15,493 nucleotides of DNA from a virus (Duplodnaviria; Heunggongvirae; Uroviricota; Caudoviricetes): IMG/VR virus record IMGVR_UViG_2606217117_000017; one strand, given 5' to 3'. Position 1 is the stretch's first letter. Each line of letters begins with the position of its first letter. A program made the translations under genes and the position numbers. The notes under the pieces were generated by a model. The model was not told the DNA's origin. It saw only the letters and a program-made list of their open reading frames with translations, and ran no database searches. Of the stretch, positions 1,002-15,493 are shown piece by piece.

Positions 1002-1700
1002 ACTGTACGTCGACTGATACAGCGGATTAACGAGATAATGATTTACGCTGTAAACACTGGTCTGATTGATGCCAATCCAGCATCGGGGGTTGGGATGGCC
1101 TTTGAGAAGCCCAAAAAGCAAAACATGCCAACATTGCGGCCAGAAGAATTGCCGAAGCTGATGCGTTCTTTAGCTATGTCAAACCTATCTGTTTCGACTC
1201 GCTGTCTCATTGAATGGCAACTCCTGACACTTGTGCGTCCTTCTGAAGCCTCTGGTGCTCGTTGGGCAGAGCTCGATCTTGATACAAAGCTCTGGACTAT
1301 TCCGGCAGAGAGAATGAAAGCCAAACGAGAGCACATTGTTCCTTTATCACCCCAAGCTTTAGATATTTTGGAAGTGATGAAGCCCATCAGTGCTCATCGT
1401 GAACATATTTTTCCTAGCAGAAATGATCCTAAGCAATCAATGAATAGCCAAACTGCTAATGCAGCTTTAAAACGTATTGGTTTTGGAGGAAAGCTAGTTG
1501 CTCATGGCCTCCGATCTATTGCAAGTACAGCAATGAATGAAGCTGGGTTCAATGCGGATGTTATTGAAGCAGCTTTAGCTCACAGTGATAAAAATGAAGT
1601 TCGTAAAGCCTATAATCGTTCAACCTACCTGGTTCAAAGAAAAGATTTAATGAACTGGTGGGGATTATTTTGTATTAGTTCGAAGAGTGTGAATAAATGA
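1002..1700 (+). pseudogene. int: P4-family tyrosine integrase, C-terminal ~230 codons only; 5' portion separated by the IS629 insertion
   Basis: Open frame runs from the IS629 end (no stop from 1002) to 1700. Translation contains catalytic-domain motifs AHGLRSIASTA (HxxR) and AHSDKNEVRKAYNRSTY (catalytic Tyr region) and resembles CP4-57 IntA/P4 Int C-terminal halves (QRINEIMIYAxNTGLIDAxP...). No N-terminal arm-binding domain is present in the window. Confidence 0.8.
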
Positions 1701-3334
1701 ATACTTATAAGCAAACCATTAAACAAAAATCAAGATTAAACATATGGGAAACAGCTATCGCAAGGTTGACAACCCAAGCTGAGAGCTCAAGAATCTTAGA
1801 ATCAAACTATTTAACAAATCTTATAGATTTTTGTTGGAAAGATACACTAAATCAAGTTGCTATATATGATGAGAGCATTGTATTACGCAATGGTTATAAT
1901 TGGGTGCAAAAAATAAGTGATAGTTATAAACCTAAAGCTGCAAGTGAACTAAAGATTGCTTTCTTTTGCGGCCCTGAACCAGAAAATGACTTGGATATAC
2001 TCTTATCATTAGATGTTAGAATAGAAAATATCTGGGCTTTTGAAATTGATAACAATTCATATAACACTGCCTTACAAAAAGCTAAAGAGTTCTATCCAAA
2101 ATTAAAAATATTCCCTGGTTCTATTGGGGAGTTTTTTAAAACCACACATCATACCTTTGATATTATTTACCTTGATTTTACAAGTTCGTTATTGACTAAA
2201 AAGAGCCCTCCCCTTGGAGTAATAAACTCTGTATTTGACAATCAGGCCCTATCAGACTTAGGGGTGTTAATTGTAAACTCTTGCGAACCCGATGCTAACG
2301 AAGATAACGCAACATTTCTTGCAAGTTATTTCATGAATCACGAAATAATTGAATCATCTGTAATTAACAAAACTAATGATGATGATTATGATGATAACTA
2401 TGATTATTTTTCACTTTTTATTGAATCCCCCACATCACAAGGATACGATGATATAAAGTCATTAGCAAAAGTTATAAAGACTAACATATCCGGAGCGTAC
2501 TCTGCCTTTTCAACAAGTTATGTAATGCACTATGCTTCAATGATTAGTCCAACACTTCGTTTTCTACAAAATAACTCATTAAAAAGACAATTATTTAATG
2601 ATAAAAAAGCTGAAGTAACTGCAACCTTTGCAGAAATTGGATCAACTGACTTTTTCAAAACATTAATATCAACAGATGGTGAAGCATCGTCCCCCTCCAT
2701 TTTAGGAAACAGATTCCTAGATAATGAAAGCTACCCATTCTGGAATTTCATTGATTCATTAAATGGCTCAGGAACAAGTATTTCATCTTACTTTAAGAGC
2801 TTTTTCACCACCGCTAAAGAAGGTGTATCCATTTTAAATGCCGTGCAATTTCGGGAATCATTTCACTCAATGCTTACAGGAGCTAGAAAGCTATTATCTC
2901 AGCGAATGCTCAATGCAATACCCCAAATAATAAAAGCAATTCCTGATGCTAGAGGTGGTTTATTCTGTGACATTCCTTTACCCCACCTTTGGTTAGAGGT
3001 GGCACTTAATCAGTTAGGTGCACCATACCATGTAAACGTGAAAATGCATAATCGATGGAAATATAAAGCAAAAACTCGCACAATGCATACGGACTTATTT
3101 GTTTTTGATAGATGCAGAGGTTTTTATGACTCAATGCCTATGATAGATCAATACGAAACGATTCTTACTAACATCGAAGAACAAATTTTCGCTAGGTGTT
3201 GTATTGATATTATTGGTAAGCAATGTCGTTGGCCAACTCCAAAACTTTATTTTGGTTCGAACCTAATTGGAATAAACGAGTCTGATTGGTCTGAGTTCGC
3301 CGAACTTCGTGAAAGAGAAATTATAAAAGAATAA
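1697..3334 (+). CDS. Hypothetical 545-aa protein, AT-rich cargo gene in the P4 int-psu accessory hotspot; function unknown (candidate anti-phage defence protein). N-terminal third has a weak Rossmann/SAM-methyltransferase-like motif pattern.
   Basis: Long uninterrupted ORF with a start overlapping the int stop (ATGA at 1697-1700). Hand counts of 60-nt blocks give roughly 23-45% G+C versus ~70% in a block of alpha. Motif-like segments KIAFFCGPEP, DVRIENIWAFEID, FDIIYLDFTSS, GVLIVNS; acidic low-complexity stretch NDDDYDDNYDY. No Walker A, HNH or obvious PD-(D/E)xK motif seen. Confidence 0.75.
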   Translation: MNTYKQTIKQKSRLNIWETAIARLTTQAESSRILESNYLTNLIDFCWKDTLNQVAIYDESIVLRNGYNWVQKISDSYKPKAASELKIAFFCGPEPENDLDILLSLDVRIENIWAFEIDNNSYNTALQKAKEFYPKLKIFPGSIGEFFKTTHHTFDIIYLDFTSSLLTKKSPPLGVINSVFDNQALSDLGVLIVNSCEPDANEDNATFLASYFMNHEIIESSVINKTNDDDYDDNYDYFSLFIESPTSQGYDDIKSLAKVIKTNISGAYSAFSTSYVMHYASMISPTLRFLQNNSLKRQLFNDKKAEVTATFAEIGSTDFFKTLISTDGEASSPSILGNRFLDNESYPFWNFIDSLNGSGTSISSYFKSFFTTAKEGVSILNAVQFRESFHSMLTGARKLLSQRMLNAIPQIIKAIPDARGGLFCDIPLPHLWLEVALNQLGAPYHVNVKMHNRWKYKAKTRTMHTDLFVFDRCRGFYDSMPMIDQYETILTNIEEQIFARCCIDIIGKQCRWPTPKLYFGSNLIGINESDWSEFAELREREIIKE

Positions 3335-3348
3335 ATCTCCACGCGCGC

Positions 3349-3367
3349 AGTGCTTTCCCCGCCTCGC
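3349..3367. other. cos site: 19-nt P2/P4-type cohesive-end sequence
   Basis: 3349-3367 is gtgctttccccgcctcgcc, the reverse complement of GGCGAGGCGGGGAAAGCAC, which I recall as the P2/P4 cohesive end. It sits between the cargo gene and psu, as cos does in P4. Confidence 0.7.
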
Positions 3368-3468
3368 CCGCCCGCTTTGCGGGGCGGTTTTAATGCAGTT
3401 GCACTGACACGCTCAGACCGCGCCGGGAATGGCGCGGTTTGCAGAAAATGAGGCAGGGAAACGCATGC

Positions 3469-5870: not shown

Positions 5871-5962
5871 GTTGCGTCTGCCAAAAATATTCACAAAATA
5901 AAGCGCTACCCGAAGCCGGACGGACTTATCCGGTGCTGTATGGACATTAACGAGGTAGCCCG

Positions 5963-6229
5963 ATGCAAGCTGTTTTTTCTTCCCCGTCTCCCGCCCCTGT
6001 GACGCCACTGATGCCGCTGCCGGACATCACGCAGGAACGTTTTTTACGTCTGCCGGAAGTAATGCACCTGTGCGGCCTGTCACGCTCGACCATCTATGAA
6101 CTCATCCGTAAGGGGGAATTTCCGCCGCAGGTGAGTCTTGGCGGTAAAAATGTGGCCTGGCTGCACTCTGAAGTCACCGCATGGATGGCCGGGCGCATTG
6201 CCGGACGCAAACGGGGGTACGACGCATGA
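5963..6229 (+). CDS. vis: Vis / AlpA-family excisionase-type DNA-binding regulator (88 aa; an internal ATG at 6011 would give 72 aa)
   Basis: MerR/AlpA-type HTH ([48 protein letters not shown]). GAGG SD 8 nt upstream of ATG 5963. Position and size equal P4 vis (orf88) as recalled. Confidence 0.75.
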
Positions 6230-6264
6230 TGATGCCCGCTCTGCAAAAACTCCCTTTTTCTGGC

Positions 6265-6294
6265 TTGCCTTTTTTCGGCATTTGCGGATATAGT
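6265..6294 (+). promoter_or_regulatory. Candidate sigma70 promoter (PLE-like) for the immunity/alpha operon
   Basis: TTGCCT (6265-6270), 18-nt spacer, TATAGT (6289-6294); followed by the seqA-like element. Confidence 0.35.
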
Positions 6295-6324
6295 TTTCCC
6301 GCTGCCGCAAAATCGGCAGCCGGG

Positions 6325-6620
6325 CGTGGAAACCCGAGCAATCTAACGGCGACATATGACGCGCCATGCGTCTTTTTTTGTGTCGCAATCAACGCCACAG
6401 AGCGCCAGATTATGGTGTGGTGTGTGGTCAGTCGAGCAGATGGCACTCCGTGCATCCTGCCCGCGTCCGCTCATTATGCCGCAGGGTCAATGGTAGCTCA
6501 GGCGGGGCAGCCTCCGGGCTGGCCGGTATCCGTTAGAGCCGGTATTTCCACCCCCGTCTGGGCTATCGCCATCGAGCGTGGAAACTCCGGCGATAGCGTA
6601 ACCTGCTATCTAACGGAGGC
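6325..6620 (+). ncRNA. cI: P4-type RNA immunity leader: putative seqA (~6335-6353), CI-RNA/seqB (~6520-6545) and seqC (~6598-6618)
   Basis: Two direct copies of cgtggaaac...atctaacgg (6325-6349 and 6578-6614) flank a segment containing the complementary tccgttaga (6529-6537). This is the arrangement expected for a CI RNA that pairs with upstream and downstream target sites. Boundaries are approximate. Confidence 0.45.
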
Positions 6621-6627
6621 TGCCATC

Positions 6628-6825
6628 ATGGCTACAACCCTTACCCCTTCACACCCTGAATTTGTCTTTGTGTTTGCGGCTGTCCGTCGCGCAGACCGTC
6701 ATCCCCGTATCTGCATGCTTCGCACCGTCGCCGGTGATGAACGCAGTGCCCGCCGTTCCCTTGTCCGTGACTATGTGCTCTCCCTTGCTGCCCGTCTGCC
6801 GGTGGTGGAGGTGTCCCGTGCGTAA
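6628..6825 (+). CDS. Hypothetical small protein (~65 aa) immediately downstream of the seqC-like site
   Basis: ATG at 6628 preceded by GGAGG (6614-6618). It is the 3' part of a longer ORF-track frame whose upstream portion overlaps vis and the regulatory leader and is unlikely to be coding. Confidence 0.4.
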
Positions 6826-7105
6826 TAAAAAAGCCCCTCAGACCGTCTCAGCACGTCATGACGCCCGTGAACACCTCAGCATTGAGGCTTACCATAAGCT
6901 CAACCGCGCCAGCGCCGTATCCCAGTTTGTTGGGGGTGATTTGATTCACCGTGAACTCTCCGGCCTGCATCAGCTCTACATTCCGCATATTTTCAGCTAC
7001 CTGAATGAAGATATTGATTTTGTGCTGAATGAGCTGAAAGCCAAAGGCCTGTGCCGCGATTTTCTCGCCCAGCAGAAAGACCGGGGAGACAGGACGCATG
7101 TTTGA
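6818..7105 (+). CDS. Hypothetical protein (~95 aa) at the position of P4 epsilon (anti-repressor); identity not established
   Basis: GTG at 6818 preceded by GGAGG (6807-6811); overlaps the stop of the preceding small ORF and is itself overlapped by the orf151 start (ATG 7098 / stop 7103-7105), suggesting translational coupling. It is the 3' part of ORF-track frame 6662-7105. Confidence 0.5.
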
Positions 7106-11016: not shown

Positions 11017-14000
11017 TCAGAACGACCAGTTCACACCAGCTACCGCGTTCCACGGGGATTCCACACCGGCACTATGGCTATACCCCACCCCAAGATGCCC
11101 GCTTAACGTACTGCTGAATGAGGCTTTAATACCTGCCTGGTATATTCCACGTCTGCCCGACAAATAATTGACGAAATTACCGTCACTATTCACTTTCACC
11201 CGGTTATCATCGACAAATTCTTTGCGCACAGCCGCCTTCAGCCACGGCTCAACTTCCATACCGTTCCCCAGACGCATGTTGTAACTCAGCGTTGCGCCCA
11301 GTTCACGATATATACTGCGGGTATCGACTGATTTCGATTTCATGCCATTGGATAAATGATATTCGGGGTTATCAGCGGTGAACCCCGTTAACGATGCATA
11401 CGGCGTCAGGTTCCAGTTACCATCGGTAAATCGCATCCCGGTTTCAATGTGACCGCCCAGCCCGTTGCTGTGGTAACTGCCATTGGCGGCTCCACCGCTG
11501 CTCATTTTACCTGCTACGTTACTTTTAAAACGGTTCAGCTTCACGACACCGTCCAGATAGAAACCACTTTCATGTTCCCAACTGGCATAGCCGCCCAGAG
11601 AATAACTGCCCACACTGCCATGTCCTCCGCGATCAAAACCGATATGTGAATGGGAATAGCCCATAAAAGCGCCTAGCGTGGTAATTCCTTCAGGAATATC
11701 ATTACGGCTGTCGATCCCCACTGTCATTCCGGTCAGCGTCTGCTCAAACCCGGCACCCGCATCGGTGGTGACATTATTACGGGTGTTATACGTCGCCCCC
11801 CAGACATTATTGTTGTGTGGACTCGCTTTCATTATGTTCAACCGCTCGCGAATACTGTTTAGCTCAGCATCAAATACCAACGGTAATGTTGCTGCCATAT
11901 TGAGTACGGCTGCCGTAGAAGGCGTAATGCGTTTCTCCGGAACGGGTGTCGGCGTTGGATCGGGAGTAGGGTCTGGTTTTGGATTTGGGTCTGGCTTTGG
12001 ATCGGGTTTTGGGTCTGGCTTTGGATTTGGGATGGGGTCCGGGTTGGGTTTGACATCATTGGTCAGGTTCCAGTTGCTGTTGCCGTCACTTTTCAGGACA
12101 TACTCATAGGTCCCAAGATCAACGAAACCGCCGGTATTGCCCAGCGTAAACGAAGCATCCCCTCCCCCTGTTTTCACCAGCGTCATCGCGTCGTCAGACT
12201 GTGGGCTGACGCCGGTATCCTGAACAAAGATTTTAAAATTACCAGTGGCGTTGTTGTTGACGACCAGTTGATCGCCCCGGGAGCCTGCAACGTTGGTATG
12301 CAGGTAGAAATTACCGCTACCGGAAAGTTCATTGGTTGTCAGCGTATTGTAGATACCGTTAGTTGTGGCAGGCGCTGCTGTTTGTGCTGACAAATAAACA
12401 TCACCGTCGTTGAGTAGCAAACTGTTTACTCTATATTCGCAGTTGCTGGTACCTGCACAGGAATTATTGCTGTTAAGCCAGACACTGCCCCGGCTGGCAG
12501 CCGTCAGGTCGGCAAGCGTGGTATCGACGCCATTTCCCAGAGTCAATGTCGCGCTATCGGTAATCCGGACCGCCCCTTCGAGTTTAACTGGCGTAACATT
12601 ATCCCGTGGCGTCATTAACGACAGGCTTCCTGTCGCGCCACTGACCGATGCATCCGCCAGCGTACCTGCGTAGACGATTGCCGTACCGCCAGCGACCTGG
12701 AGATCTTCTGCCCGGGCCAGAGCCTGAAACTCATCTTTTGACCGCCCAAGGGTATATTGCCCGCCAGAGTTAACCTTTGTGGCGGAGTCCTGACCCAGGT
12801 TTTGCATTGCCCCACCCTTGCCAACCGTGGAGTCGCGAGCTTCGGTACCTGCTAATACCAATAAATTACCGCCATTTTCCAGCAACATATTGGTCGCTAA
12901 ATTGCCGGAAATGGAAAAAGTACCGTACTGGTGAGTACCGCTGATTTCAATACCGTTAGCCGTGCTCGTCTGGAGAGCGGCACCGCTGTTCTGGACGATA
13001 TCTGTCGCTTTGCCATTATCGTTGACTGTCAGCGTACCGCCTTCATTGATCTTTGTTTTTATTGCCTCTCCGTTAGCTGAAACTGTTTGTATTCCGCCGT
13101 CGTTAATTGTTGTCTCATTCGCCACACCCTCGACAATTTGTTCACCGCCGGTGAGCGTCGTGCCTGTCGCAGTGGCTTTTGTTTTGACGATCTCCCGTCC
13201 GCCCATATTGACCTGTGTTTTGTCAGAAGAGGTGTCTGACTCCACGGTTAACACGCCGCCATTTGCCAGCAGGATATTGTTCGCCGCACCCTGCTCGATG
13301 CTGAACGCGACGCCATCCGCGCGTGTTCCTGTGACCCGCGTCGCCCTGGTGGTTGCAACCAAAGCGCCCTGGCTACTCTGCTGTATCCCCGTTGCGCTGC
13401 CTTTCTCCCGCACATCGAGTGTGCCGCCGTCATTAAGCACCGAGTTTTCAGCCAGACCGCCCTCATTAACTACCTGTGAACCCCCATTAATAATGGAACC
13501 TTCCGCTGTCCCGTTTGCCATAATTTGTTGTAGGCCAGAGACGATATCGGTATTGATTGCCTTACCATAATTCTGAACGGTTTGCGTGCCACCATTGATG
13601 TGTGTTTTCTCTGTTGACCCACCATCAACAATTTGTTCACCACTTTCGATATTTGCTTCAGTGGCTAAACCATATACCGTTTGCTTGCCACCTTTGATAT
13701 TTGCTTTATCAGAAGTGGCACTGGCATATATTGTTTGGGTGCCAGCACTATTGAGTACAGTGCCAACATCTTTTCCATAAACATCCATTTTGCCGTTGGC
13801 ATTAATAATCGTGTCAACTGCGCGGGAACCAGTGACGACTGTTAATGAGCCAGCGTTTTCCAGCACTACATTTTTAGCTTCTGAATTCCTGATGTAGAAA
13901 GCATCACCATAACTGTTGGTTCCTTCGATAAGTGTTCCGGAGGTCGTGGAAGCAATTAATGCGCCGCCGGATTGTTGCTCAACATGCTTAGCCTCACCAC

Positions 14001-14164
14001 CGTCCTGAACCTCCAGAACGCCGCCATTATTAAGTCTGGTGCTATCTGTTTTAGCCTCCTTCTGGACAATCAGCTTACCGCCAGTATCAATGGTAGTATT
14101 TTTCGCCGAGGTTTTAGCCACTACCGTCAGTTCGCCGGTATTTTCCAGCACAACATAATTAGCC
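11017..14164 (-). pseudogene. AIDA-I/Ag43-type (type Va) autotransporter adhesin, 5'-truncated by IS10 (no signal peptide or N-terminal passenger start in window)
   Basis: C-terminal beta-barrel ending ...AVAGVNWSF; repetitive Gly/Thr/Asn-rich passenger with ~19-aa repeats (GGxQxV...); Pro-rich linker PNPDPIPNPKPDPKPDPKPDP. The ORF-track start codon at 14218-14220 and first 18 codons lie inside the IS10 terminus, so the native 5' end is missing. Confidence 0.8.
11948..12053. repeat. In-frame tandem repeat (24-bp period, GGNTYTGG-type units) encoding the Pro-Asp/Lys linker of the autotransporter
   Basis: gggtctggctttggat occurs at 11988-12003 and 12012-12027, with related hexamer units throughout 11948-12053. 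Confidence 0.7.
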
Positions 14165-15493
14165 CTGATGAATCCCCTAATGATTTTGGTAAAAATCATT
14201 AAGTTAAGGTGGATACACATCTTGTCATATGATCAAATGGTTTCGCGAAAAATCAATAATCAGACAACAAGATGTGCGAACTCGATATTTTACACGACTC
14301 TCTTTACCAATTCTGCCCCGAATTACACTTAAAACGACTCAACAGCTTAACGTTGGCTTGCCACGCCTTACTTGACTGTAAAACTCTCACTCTTACCGAA
14401 CTTGGCCGTAACCTGCCAACCAAAGCGAGAACAAAACATAACATCAAACGAATCGACCGATTGTTAGGTAATCGTCACCTCCACAAAGAGCGACTCGCTG
14501 TATACCGTTGGCATGCTAGCTTTATCTGTTCGGGCAATACGATGCCCATTGTACTTGTTGACTGGTCTGATATTCGTGAGCAAAAACGACTTATGGTATT
14601 GCGAGCTTCAGTCGCACTACACGGTCGTTCTGTTACTCTTTATGAGAAAGCGTTCCCGCTTTCAGAGCAATGTTCAAAGAAAGCTCATGACCAATTTCTA
14701 GCCGACCTTGCGAGCATTCTACCGAGTAACACCACACCGCTCATTGTCAGTGATGCTGGCTTTAAAGTGCCATGGTATAAATCCGTTGAGAAGCTGGGTT
14801 GGTACTGGTTAAGTCGAGTAAGAGGAAAAGTACAATATGCAGACCTAGGAGCGGAAAACTGGAAACCTATCAGCAACTTACATGATATGTCATCTAGTCA
14901 CTCAAAGACTTTAGGCTATAAGAGGCTGACTAAAAGCAATCCAATCTCATGCCAAATTCTATTGTATAAATCTCGCTCTAAAGGCCGAAAAAATCAGCGC
15001 TCGACACGGACTCATTGTCACCACCCGTCACCTAAAATCTACTCAGCGTCGGCAAAGGAGCCATGGGTTCTAGCAACTAACTTACCTGTTGAAATTCGAA
15101 CACCCAAACAACTTGTTAATATCTATTCGAAGCGAATGCAGATTGAAGAAACCTTCCGAGACTTGAAAAGTCCTGCCTACGGACTAGGCCTACGCCATAG
15201 CCGAACGAGCAGCTCAGAGCGTTTTGATATCATGCTGCTAATCGCCCTGATGCTTCAACTAACATGTTGGCTTGCGGGCGTTCATGCTCAGAAACAAGGT
15301 TGGGACAAGCACTTCCAGGCTAACACAGTCAGAAATCGAAACGTACTCTCAACAGTTCGCTTAGGCATGGAAGTTTTGCGGCATTCTGGCTACACAATAA
15401 CAAGGGAAGACTCACTCGTGGCTGCAACCCTGCTTACTCAAAATTTATTCACACATGGTTACGCTTTGGGGAAATTATGAGGGGATCTCTCAG
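14165..15493 (+). mobile_element. IS10 (IS4 family), complete 1329-bp copy; outside end at 14165, inside end at the last base of the window
   Basis: Begins CTGATGAATCCCCTAATGATTTTGGTAAAAATCATTAAGTTAAGGTGGATACACATCTTGTCATATGATC (IS10 outside end, from memory) and ends ...TTATGAGGGGATCTCTCAG (inside end); length 1329 bp. Confidence 0.9.
14272..15480 (+). CDS. IS10 transposase, 402 aa
   Basis: ORF-track protein MCELDILHDSLYQFCPELHLKRLNSLTLACHALLDCKTLTLTELGRNL... matches the IS10/Tn10 transposase from memory; starts 108 nt inside the element. Confidence 0.92.
   Translation: MCELDILHDSLYQFCPELHLKRLNSLTLACHALLDCKTLTLTELGRNLPTKARTKHNIKRIDRLLGNRHLHKERLAVYRWHASFICSGNTMPIVLVDWSDIREQKRLMVLRASVALHGRSVTLYEKAFPLSEQCSKKAHDQFLADLASILPSNTTPLIVSDAGFKVPWYKSVEKLGWYWLSRVRGKVQYADLGAENWKPISNLHDMSSSHSKTLGYKRLTKSNPISCQILLYKSRSKGRKNQRSTRTHCHHPSPKIYSASAKEPWVLATNLPVEIRTPKQLVNIYSKRMQIEETFRDLKSPAYGLGLRHSRTSSSERFDIMLLIALMLQLTCWLAGVHAQKQGWDKHFQANTVRNRNVLSTVRLGMEVLRHSGYTITREDSLVAATLLTQNLFTHGYALGKL

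Follow-up and report, generated by a model that had tools for sequence, protein, structure and literature searches.

The genetics and biochemistry of the immunity system of phage P4, formed by the CI RNA and its targets seqA and seqC, have been worked out in detail since 1992. The P4 CI RNA is matured by RNase P at its 5' end, with PNPase taking part in 3' maturation. It is listed among RNase P substrates (PMC5499578), and seqA, CI, seqC, eta and kil of P4 are described in PMC4825925, PMC3632133 and PMC10111431. The retronphage phiR73 is presented in PMC7567579, which cites Sabbattini et al. (1996), as P4-like and as carrying the same system with a different immunity specificity.

Related RNAs occur in other phages. 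The C4 RNA of P1 and P7 (RF01695, RF03163; a1b1 and a2b2 targets, icd-ant) belongs to the same RNA family as the CI RNA encoded in the window, that is, the whole 15,493-nt stretch of DNA analysed here. C4 is an antisense RNA processed from the transcript that it regulates, as the CI RNA of the window probably is; both have two-part targets upstream and downstream, and in both the downstream target covers the ribosome-binding site of an Icd-like gene. The outputs differ. P1 regulates the antirepressor Ant, while the window locus regulates the P4 replication operon, and P4 adds read-through translation of eta as an escape route (general knowledge and PMC10111431). The P1-like phage D6 aligns with the window over CI plus the start of icd. 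In N15, phiKO2 and PY54, which are linear plasmid-prophages, the locus of the anti-immunity CB RNA (icd-antA) has an isrK-like and C4 pair upstream of icd, as in the window, and is about 77–80% identical in nucleotide sequence to positions 6490–6597; there, an antirepressor is regulated, not a replication operon.

A P4-like satellite prophage in the E. coli chromosome

Judged by its sequence, the segment 3369–10703 of the window is a P4-like satellite prophage of E. coli. It is 98.2% identical to P4 (BLAST) from psu through crr, in an alignment that spans psu, delta, sid, ori, orf88/vis, the immunity region, epsilon, orf151, orf106, alpha and crr, and the gene order psu-delta-sid-vis-eta/kil-epsilon-orf151-orf106-alpha is the same in both. 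The core genes of P4-like satellites (psu, delta, sid, alpA, epsilon, alpha and integrase) all occur in P4 order, the integrase in truncated form, and the Pfam matches in the prophage were AlpA, Derepression (epsilon) and integrase. Searches of Pfam, NCBIfam, PHROGs, PADLOC and PDB sequences returned no match for a 545-aa ORF, and no tRNA or tmRNA genes were found within the window. Whole-window searches placed the window in the E. coli chromosome adjoining ypjA/ehaD; a near-identical relative adjoins ssrA. A P4-type system is present in 1084 of 5426 complete E. coli genomes, or about one-fifth. Of the 894 E. coli genomes with a CI-like match, 46 carry an identical copy of the 79-nt CI RNA.

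The immunity region (6265–6630) lies between vis and epsilon (6818–7105), the same place as in P4. Positions 5900–7100 are 96.6% identical to P4, the immunity region aligns base for base, and order, spacing, sequence and flanking genes are all shared. A sequence-only reading of this DNA had proposed a P4-like seqA/seqB/seqC arrangement and had named alignment with the P4 immunity region as a check. The alignment bears the proposal out, as do three Rfam matches and the compensatory changes described below.

The prophage looks defective. Its integrase is interrupted by an IS3-family element, which has an ALIL frameshift signal (549–665) and adjoins the remaining C-terminal 220 aa. At the opposite end of the window is an IS10, with RNA-OUT at positions 14210–14279. 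The integrase gene is full-length in an intact relative. Selection on the immunity module in this strain is therefore not guaranteed, and the module could be a relic in a decaying prophage, unexpressed or unused here. We regard this as very unlikely. No part of the module is damaged, whether promoter, targets, t1, CI stem or the frames of kil and eta; the match between the three sites is perfect, and other strains carry near-identical copies. Moreover, satellites of the same immunity type that superinfect the cell would still meet a resident CI RNA that protects the cell or the element.

Layout of the immunity region

Homology, RNA family membership, predicted accessibility, covarying pairings, a conserved terminator and a conserved eta frame together indicate, with a probability of about 0.93, that 6265–6630 is a P4-type RNA immunity region with the architecture of P4 and an allele that would be self-immune and not cross-immune with P4. 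Its parts are collected in Table 1, where the a and b sub-sites are named by analogy with the P1 nomenclature.

Table 1. Features of the immunity region and flanking genes, in window coordinates.
Feature	Position	Strand	Basis and details
vis/alpA (orf88)	5963–6229	+	Pfam Phage_AlpA 74 bits; P4 ORF88 annotation
eta ORF, 199 aa	6226–6825	+	Pfam Phage_ASH; NCBIfam Icd-like; conserved frame
PLE promoter (predicted)	6265–6294	+	Promoter scan; sigma-70-like
Leader RNA (seqA RNA, isrK-like)	6301–6379	+	Rfam isrK, c4-a1b1; fold
seqA target	6326–6349	+	b1 GUGGAAA 6326–6332; a1 UCUAACGG 6342–6349; complementary to 6545–6551 and 6530–6537, respectively
t1 intrinsic terminator	6358–6379	+	Terminator scan; GACGCG CCA UGCGUC then U7
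CI RNA	6492–6570	+	Rfam C4; fold; X02534 dyad maps to 6492–6567
seqB in CI RNA	6530–6551	+	a' CCGUUAGA 6530–6537; b' UUUCCAC 6545–6551
Helix X (predicted)	6562–6597	+	6562–6570 with 6589–6597; covariation
seqC target	6578–6616	+	b2 GUGGAAA 6578–6584; a2 UCUAACGG 6609–6616
kil ribosome-binding site	6615–6630	+	SD GGAGG 6615–6619; ATG 6628–6630
kil, 65 aa, Icd-like	6628–6825	+	PHROG 1743/6928; NCBIfam Icd-like; nested in eta

The predicted promoter PLE consists of a -35 element TTGCCT (6265–6270), an 18-nt spacer and a -10 element TATAGT (6289–6294), the latter coinciding with the 'consensus -10 sequence' annotated in the P4 record X02534. Transcription probably starts near 6301, where the isrK model begins. 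The leader RNA is laid out as a hairpin (6301–6320), a second hairpin carrying b1 in its loop (6321–6336), a single-stranded linker with a1, and the terminator t1. With PLE upstream of seqA, t1 lies between seqA and cI; its hairpin (6358–6372) and U7 tract follow seqA on the 3' side, where P4 has its own terminator.

Three Rfam covariance models matched the + strand above their curated gathering scores: C4 at 6486–6573 (76.2 bits; threshold 45; full-length model), isrK at 6301–6378 (75.4 bits; threshold 50; full length) and c4-a1b1 at 6288–6340 (51.9 bits; threshold 46.7). The CI RNA and the seqA leader RNA are the counterparts of these matches in the P4 literature (PMC3632133, PMC4825925).

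The mature CI RNA, with ends placed by homology, would be about 79 nt long. It is predicted to fold, at -48.1 kcal/mol and with z = -4.4, into a basal stem of 16 bp (6492–6507 with 6552–6567) and two internal hairpins, with a GCCA 3' tail (6568–6571); a stem starting at G6492 and followed by GCCA is compatible with an RNase P substrate. Here a' occupies a hairpin loop, and b' falls in a single-stranded joint. All four pairing segments are predicted to be accessible, because the folds put them in loops, the joint and the linker. In seqC, a small hairpin (6592–6598 with 6604–6610) separates b2 from a2.

The leader raises a further possibility. IsrK of Salmonella Gifsy-1 (IsrK/STnc1160, RF01394) is reported to activate, in trans, the translation of an anti-terminator inhibitor, and the P4 seqA RNA has been called a structural homologue of IsrK, with an analogous interplay with STnc1160 suggested (PMC4825925). 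The transcript from PLE to t1, with its full-length isrK match, could likewise be a stable small RNA that acts in trans, either titrating the CI RNA or activating translation of a longer isoform. To our knowledge, no such trans role has been described for the P4 seqA RNA. Nothing in the sequence separates a trans role from a role in cis, and the leader fold alone is not unusually stable (z = -1.1). We consider this additional role unlikely.

Pairing of the CI RNA with its targets, and the overlapping genes

The sequence-only reading started from two direct copies of a split repeat, cgtggaaac and atctaacgg, on either side of a complementary segment. The first copy lies where it was placed (6325–6333 and 6341–6349). 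The second is also present, with its two parts at 6577–6585 and 6608–6616 rather than within 6578–6614. The complement tccgttaga was correctly located at 6529–6537 and matches 6609–6617 at 9/9 and 6342–6349 at 8/8 positions. A second complementary block had been missed, although cgtggaaac was listed in the repeat: UUUCCAC pairs with both 6326–6332 and 6578–6584, and complementarity therefore extends well beyond an 8–9-nt core. The complementarity search gave a stretch of 26 nt that is 73% complementary, and in the window copy all 15 core positions of seqB are complementary to seqA.

The seqB duplex has a calculated energy of -35.4 kcal/mol with seqA and -41.1 kcal/mol with seqC. Dinucleotide shuffles averaged -23 +/- 3.6 kcal/mol, and the observed energies were reached by 3 of 1000 shuffles for seqA and by none of 1000 for seqC. 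On the + strand, seqC and seqA are the best two duplex sites in the whole window. In the same window-wide scan, several G+C-rich tiles of the minus strand reached similar energies; duplex energy alone is therefore not specific.

When the whole CI RNA was folded with either target in nested form, the net gain was only 3–4 kcal/mol, because CI would need to unfold, and the minimum-energy fold of the precursor in cis was a long seqB–seqC hairpin. Loop-mediated contacts are beyond these tools, and we therefore relied on short-site duplexes and covariation.

A pattern scan with one genome per species yielded 33 further loci, found in Serratia, Citrobacter, Enterobacter, Erwinia, Pantoea, Rahnella and others, to which P4 and four E. 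coli loci were added. In essentially all of 39 loci, the matching complement is present in both seqA and seqC, and its offsets are fixed. Covariation was counted in an alignment of 36 P4-like sequences from many Enterobacterales. Pairing reached 99.8% in the seqB–seqA contact, where 9 of 15 pairs had changed on both sides, and 100% in the seqB–seqC contact, where 10 of 15 had done so; controls in which the partner was slid by 1–3 columns gave 33–55% pairing. The CI RNA helices (97.7% paired) also show compensatory changes, and the t1 stem is conserved, with a G–C to C–G swap in 12 of the 36 loci. This covariation is strong independent evidence, drawn from sequence comparison, that the RNA–RNA contacts, which are established for P4, are real and under selection. 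The earlier proposal that an RNA from the central segment pairs with both flanks is thus upheld, and its interpretation as a whole was essentially right for what proved a real observation.

Two other pairings fared differently. An 11-nt perfect contact between the first CI hairpin (6506–6516) and the kil SD region (6614–6624) was tried and rejected, its covariation being no better than that of shuffles. Hairpin Y (6585–6618) showed weak covariation.

The region also encodes protein. An ORF at 6181–6825 had been recognised and judged more likely a non-coding leader; the ORF exists, and the judgement does not hold. Its eta frame matches Pfam Phage_ASH at full length (100.5 bits) and, C-terminally, the NCBIfam Icd-like domain (72 bits), and PGAP annotates eta as a 199-aa Icd-like protein in near-identical genomes. 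The frame runs through seqA, CI and seqC, its final 65 codons are kil, and 37 of 39 diverse relatives, even with many indels, keep it open for at least 171 codons across the stretch from seqA to the stop of kil. The eta ATG at 6226 overlaps the stop of vis/alpA (ATGA), the first gene of the late (PLL) transcript. Eta is described in PMC10111431, citing Forti et al. (1999), as translated only from the late promoter and translationally coupled to alpA; the same account has eta translation preventing termination in P4, and Kil, the C-terminal 65 residues of eta, arising from PLE transcripts that escape termination. As eta bears these signs of a genuine gene, the region is both coding and RNA-regulatory.

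Could the repeats then reflect eta/Ash coding only, as repeated peptide motifs with no RNA–RNA function? The frame is open and conserved, with its Phage_ASH match, and the sub-site copies are spaced by 252 and 267 nt, both multiples of 3, so that they encode similar peptides (RGN..., NLT/YLT). However, the inverted seqB changes in step with both direct copies at 9–10 of 15 positions, which protein constraint cannot explain, and the three covariance-model matches and the conserved CI stem would be left unaccounted for. Covariation effectively refutes the coding-only explanation.

By analogy with the P4 literature, the RNA immunity system would work as follows. PLE would be constitutive and transcribe rightward through seqA, t1, the CI RNA precursor, seqC and the start of kil. 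The CI RNA, cut out of this transcript, would be the trans-acting immunity factor. On nascent PLE transcripts, its a' and b' would find their partners in seqA (a1/b1) and in seqC (a2/b2). The contact with seqA would increase termination at t1, which would also autoregulate CI. Pairing at seqC would cover the kil Shine-Dalgarno sequence, and the untranslated RNA would be terminated before or inside kil, at t4 and the Rho-dependent timm, so that the replication genes from epsilon to alpha would stay off. Transcripts from the late promoter upstream would escape because ribosomes translate eta through the whole region.

An overlap of the downstream copy with the SD of the next ORF had been seen early on and is confirmed: a2 and the kil SD share two bases, GGAGG standing at 6615–6619, not 6614–6618, with the next ATG at 6628. 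This overlap also fits a simpler mechanism, like that of the P1/P7 C4 RNA, in which only translation of the Icd-like gene kil is blocked and Rho polarity is secondary, with no antisense-induced termination at t1 or t4. Kil is Icd-like, the C4-plus-icd layout is common to P1-like and N15-like phages, and a timm-homologous region (a Rho-dependent terminator) lies inside kil at 6628–6784, differing from P4 at 2 positions; timm, X51522 8365–8209 (PMC3177188), was mapped to the window through the alignment with P4. Against such a mechanism, a canonical intrinsic terminator sits directly 3' of seqA and is kept with compensatory change. For P4, Briani et al. (2000), cited in PMC4825925, reportedly found that the CI RNA increases termination at t1 in vitro when no host factors are present, and that t4 is Rho-independent. 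A block of translation as the sole effect is therefore rather unlikely, and we favour the P4-type mechanism that includes termination.

Immunity specificity and Helix X

The window copy differs from P4 in the pairing sites themselves. P4 has GUGAGAA and UUCACAGG where the window has GUGGAAA and UCUAACGG, and the change is coherent at seqA, seqB and seqC; a further difference lies in the loop (6600–6603) of the small hairpin that separates b2 from a2. Of about 30 substitutions relative to P4 in 6265–6640, 18 fall within the six sub-sites, which make up 45 of 376 nt (binomial P = 5e-10; substitutions counted without gaps, from alignments). In the same ungapped comparison, 6 of 15 core positions differ from P4 at each site, and the immunity specificity is not expected to be that of P4. 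The calculated energies of short-site duplexes are -20 to -23 kcal/mol when the alleles are cognate and -6 to -8 kcal/mol when a window site is paired with one of P4. Since both sub-sites are changed in all three places, the element is predicted to be immune to itself and heteroimmune to P4, a prediction that draws on the duplex energies and on the phenotypes of P4 point mutants. PhiR73, and P1 versus P7, are precedents for such heteroimmunity.

Among the 39 loci, the a' loop and b' triplet take 3 b-alleles and at least 8 a-alleles in 18 combinations. The modules reassort between elements that are otherwise about 97% identical: one locus (L005) combines the P4 b-allele with the window a-allele, and another (L017) has the reverse.

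The predicted Helix X joins the CI RNA to seqC. Its 5' strand is made up of the final 6 nt on the 3' side of the CI stem and the GCC of the tail, and its loop, 18 nt long, contains b2. Pairing is 99.1%, and 5 of 9 pairs show compensatory changes; two of these changes cannot be a by-product of the CI stem. Helix X cannot form together with the lowest 6 bp of the CI stem or with a hairpin that partly covers the kil SD, and the states with Helix X and with the alternative are nearly isoenergetic (about -70 versus about -71 kcal/mol). The precursor may toggle between a form with a processable CI stem and a sequestered kil SD, and an unprocessable form in which b2 is displayed and the SD is free.

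Helix X is also predicted in phiKO2, PY54, D6 and phiP27. It was found in 124 of 131 distinct C4-type regions (at least 8/9 paired, mostly with an 18-nt loop), counted at fixed offsets, since minimum-energy folds did not place the end of the CI stem reliably. In this broad C4 set, the non-cognate control is high (7.2/9), and the count speaks for conservation, not covariation. Conserved across P4-, N15-, P1- and phiP27-type C4 loci, Helix X lies outside the Rfam C4 model.

That immunity is a combinatorial two-module code and, jointly, that Helix X is an undescribed switch confined to the precursor is a tentative proposal, and one we think possible rather than probable. The system as such is already known, and the window copy is a natural specificity variant of it; as a discovery it matters little, and any novelty would be confined to the two-module allele code and Helix X. 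Its natural allelic series nonetheless provides textbook-quality covariation support for the two RNA–RNA contacts. At this place, the only entry in genome annotations is an "Icd-like protein", the immunity RNA goes unnamed in the annotation listed under the match, and the legacy P4 record gives, in the same frame, a 137-aa "cI gene product / transcriptional repressor". That repressor annotation is historical; the immunity factor is an RNA. If the two-module code is true, the combination in the window would be a distinct immunity type, heteroimmune to P4. The heteroimmunity to P4 that the window allele predicts bears on whether satellites may share a host and whether they may superinfect it.

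A helix that competes with the CI stem

The CI RNA, the small antisense immunity RNA of the P4-like satellite (Rfam C4), is overlapped at its 3' end by a further helix, here termed helix X. The CI stem supplies the 5' arm of this helix from its 3' strand, extended by GCC, and the 18-nt loop contains b2, one of the two sub-sites of the downstream CI target. Covariation of helix X was strong across the 36 P4-like loci, and the helix is also kept by C4 loci of the N15, P1 and phiP27 types; the Rfam C4 model does not take it in. Helix X competes with the base of the CI stem, and likewise with a hairpin over the Shine-Dalgarno sequence (SD) of kil.

A second pairing was considered in the same region. 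The first CI hairpin (6506–6516) is perfectly complementary over 11 nt to the kil SD region (6614–6624), and this complementarity was found in the P4 clade. Because no covariation between the two segments was detected in the wider family, they probably do not form a conserved contact.

Flanks of the satellite and a candidate anti-phage gene

The features at and around the satellite are listed in the table. The integrase remnant retains only the C-terminal 220 aa and adjoins an IS3-family element; the closest genomes resemble the window from position 990 onward. Without help, the satellite probably cannot excise. Between the remnant and psu lies a 545-aa ORF, in the interval described as a defence-system hotspot of P4-like satellites (PMC8628076, PMC9122126). 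Whereas P4 carries gop, beta and cII there, the window has this ORF instead. Searches of Pfam, NCBIfam, PHROGs, PADLOC and PDB sequences found no match to it, and a relative carries it under the annotation 'hypothetical'. The ORF is a candidate uncharacterised anti-phage gene. On the right, an adhesin gene lies directly outside the prophage and is followed by an IS10 end.

Features of the immunity region and the flanks (window coordinates)
Feature	Position	Strand	Details
ALIL frameshift pseudoknot	549–665	−	in the IS3-family element
Truncated prophage integrase	1038–1700		Pfam Phage_integrase
545-aa ORF	1697–3334	+	
ORF labelled cI	6409–6825		3041–3457 in NC_001609 (L002, phage P4)
Helix X	6562–6597		6562–6570 pairs with 6589–6597
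Autotransporter adhesin	11017–14220	−	AIDA/pertactin-type, ypjA/ehaD-like, 1067 aa
RNA-OUT	14210–14279		marks the IS10 end
402-aa ORF	14272–15480		within 14165–15493; putative IS10 transposase

Annotation and co-resident immunity regions

In NC_001609, the ORF over the CI RNA is still labelled 'cI gene product / transcriptional repressor', as it is in PHROG 6928, and among the E. coli features that RefSeq lists at the match an Icd-like CDS is the only one named, without an RNA gene. The RNA immunity factor is therefore unannotated.

The only two genomes with two P4-type immunity regions each are those of Citrobacter youngae (L018/L024) and Enterobacter intestinihominis (L025/L037), and in both (n = 2) the copies are unlike each other at the a and b sub-sites alike. 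The unlike copies are consistent with co-resident satellites being heteroimmune, but such a difference is expected by chance, since 18 allele combinations are in circulation.
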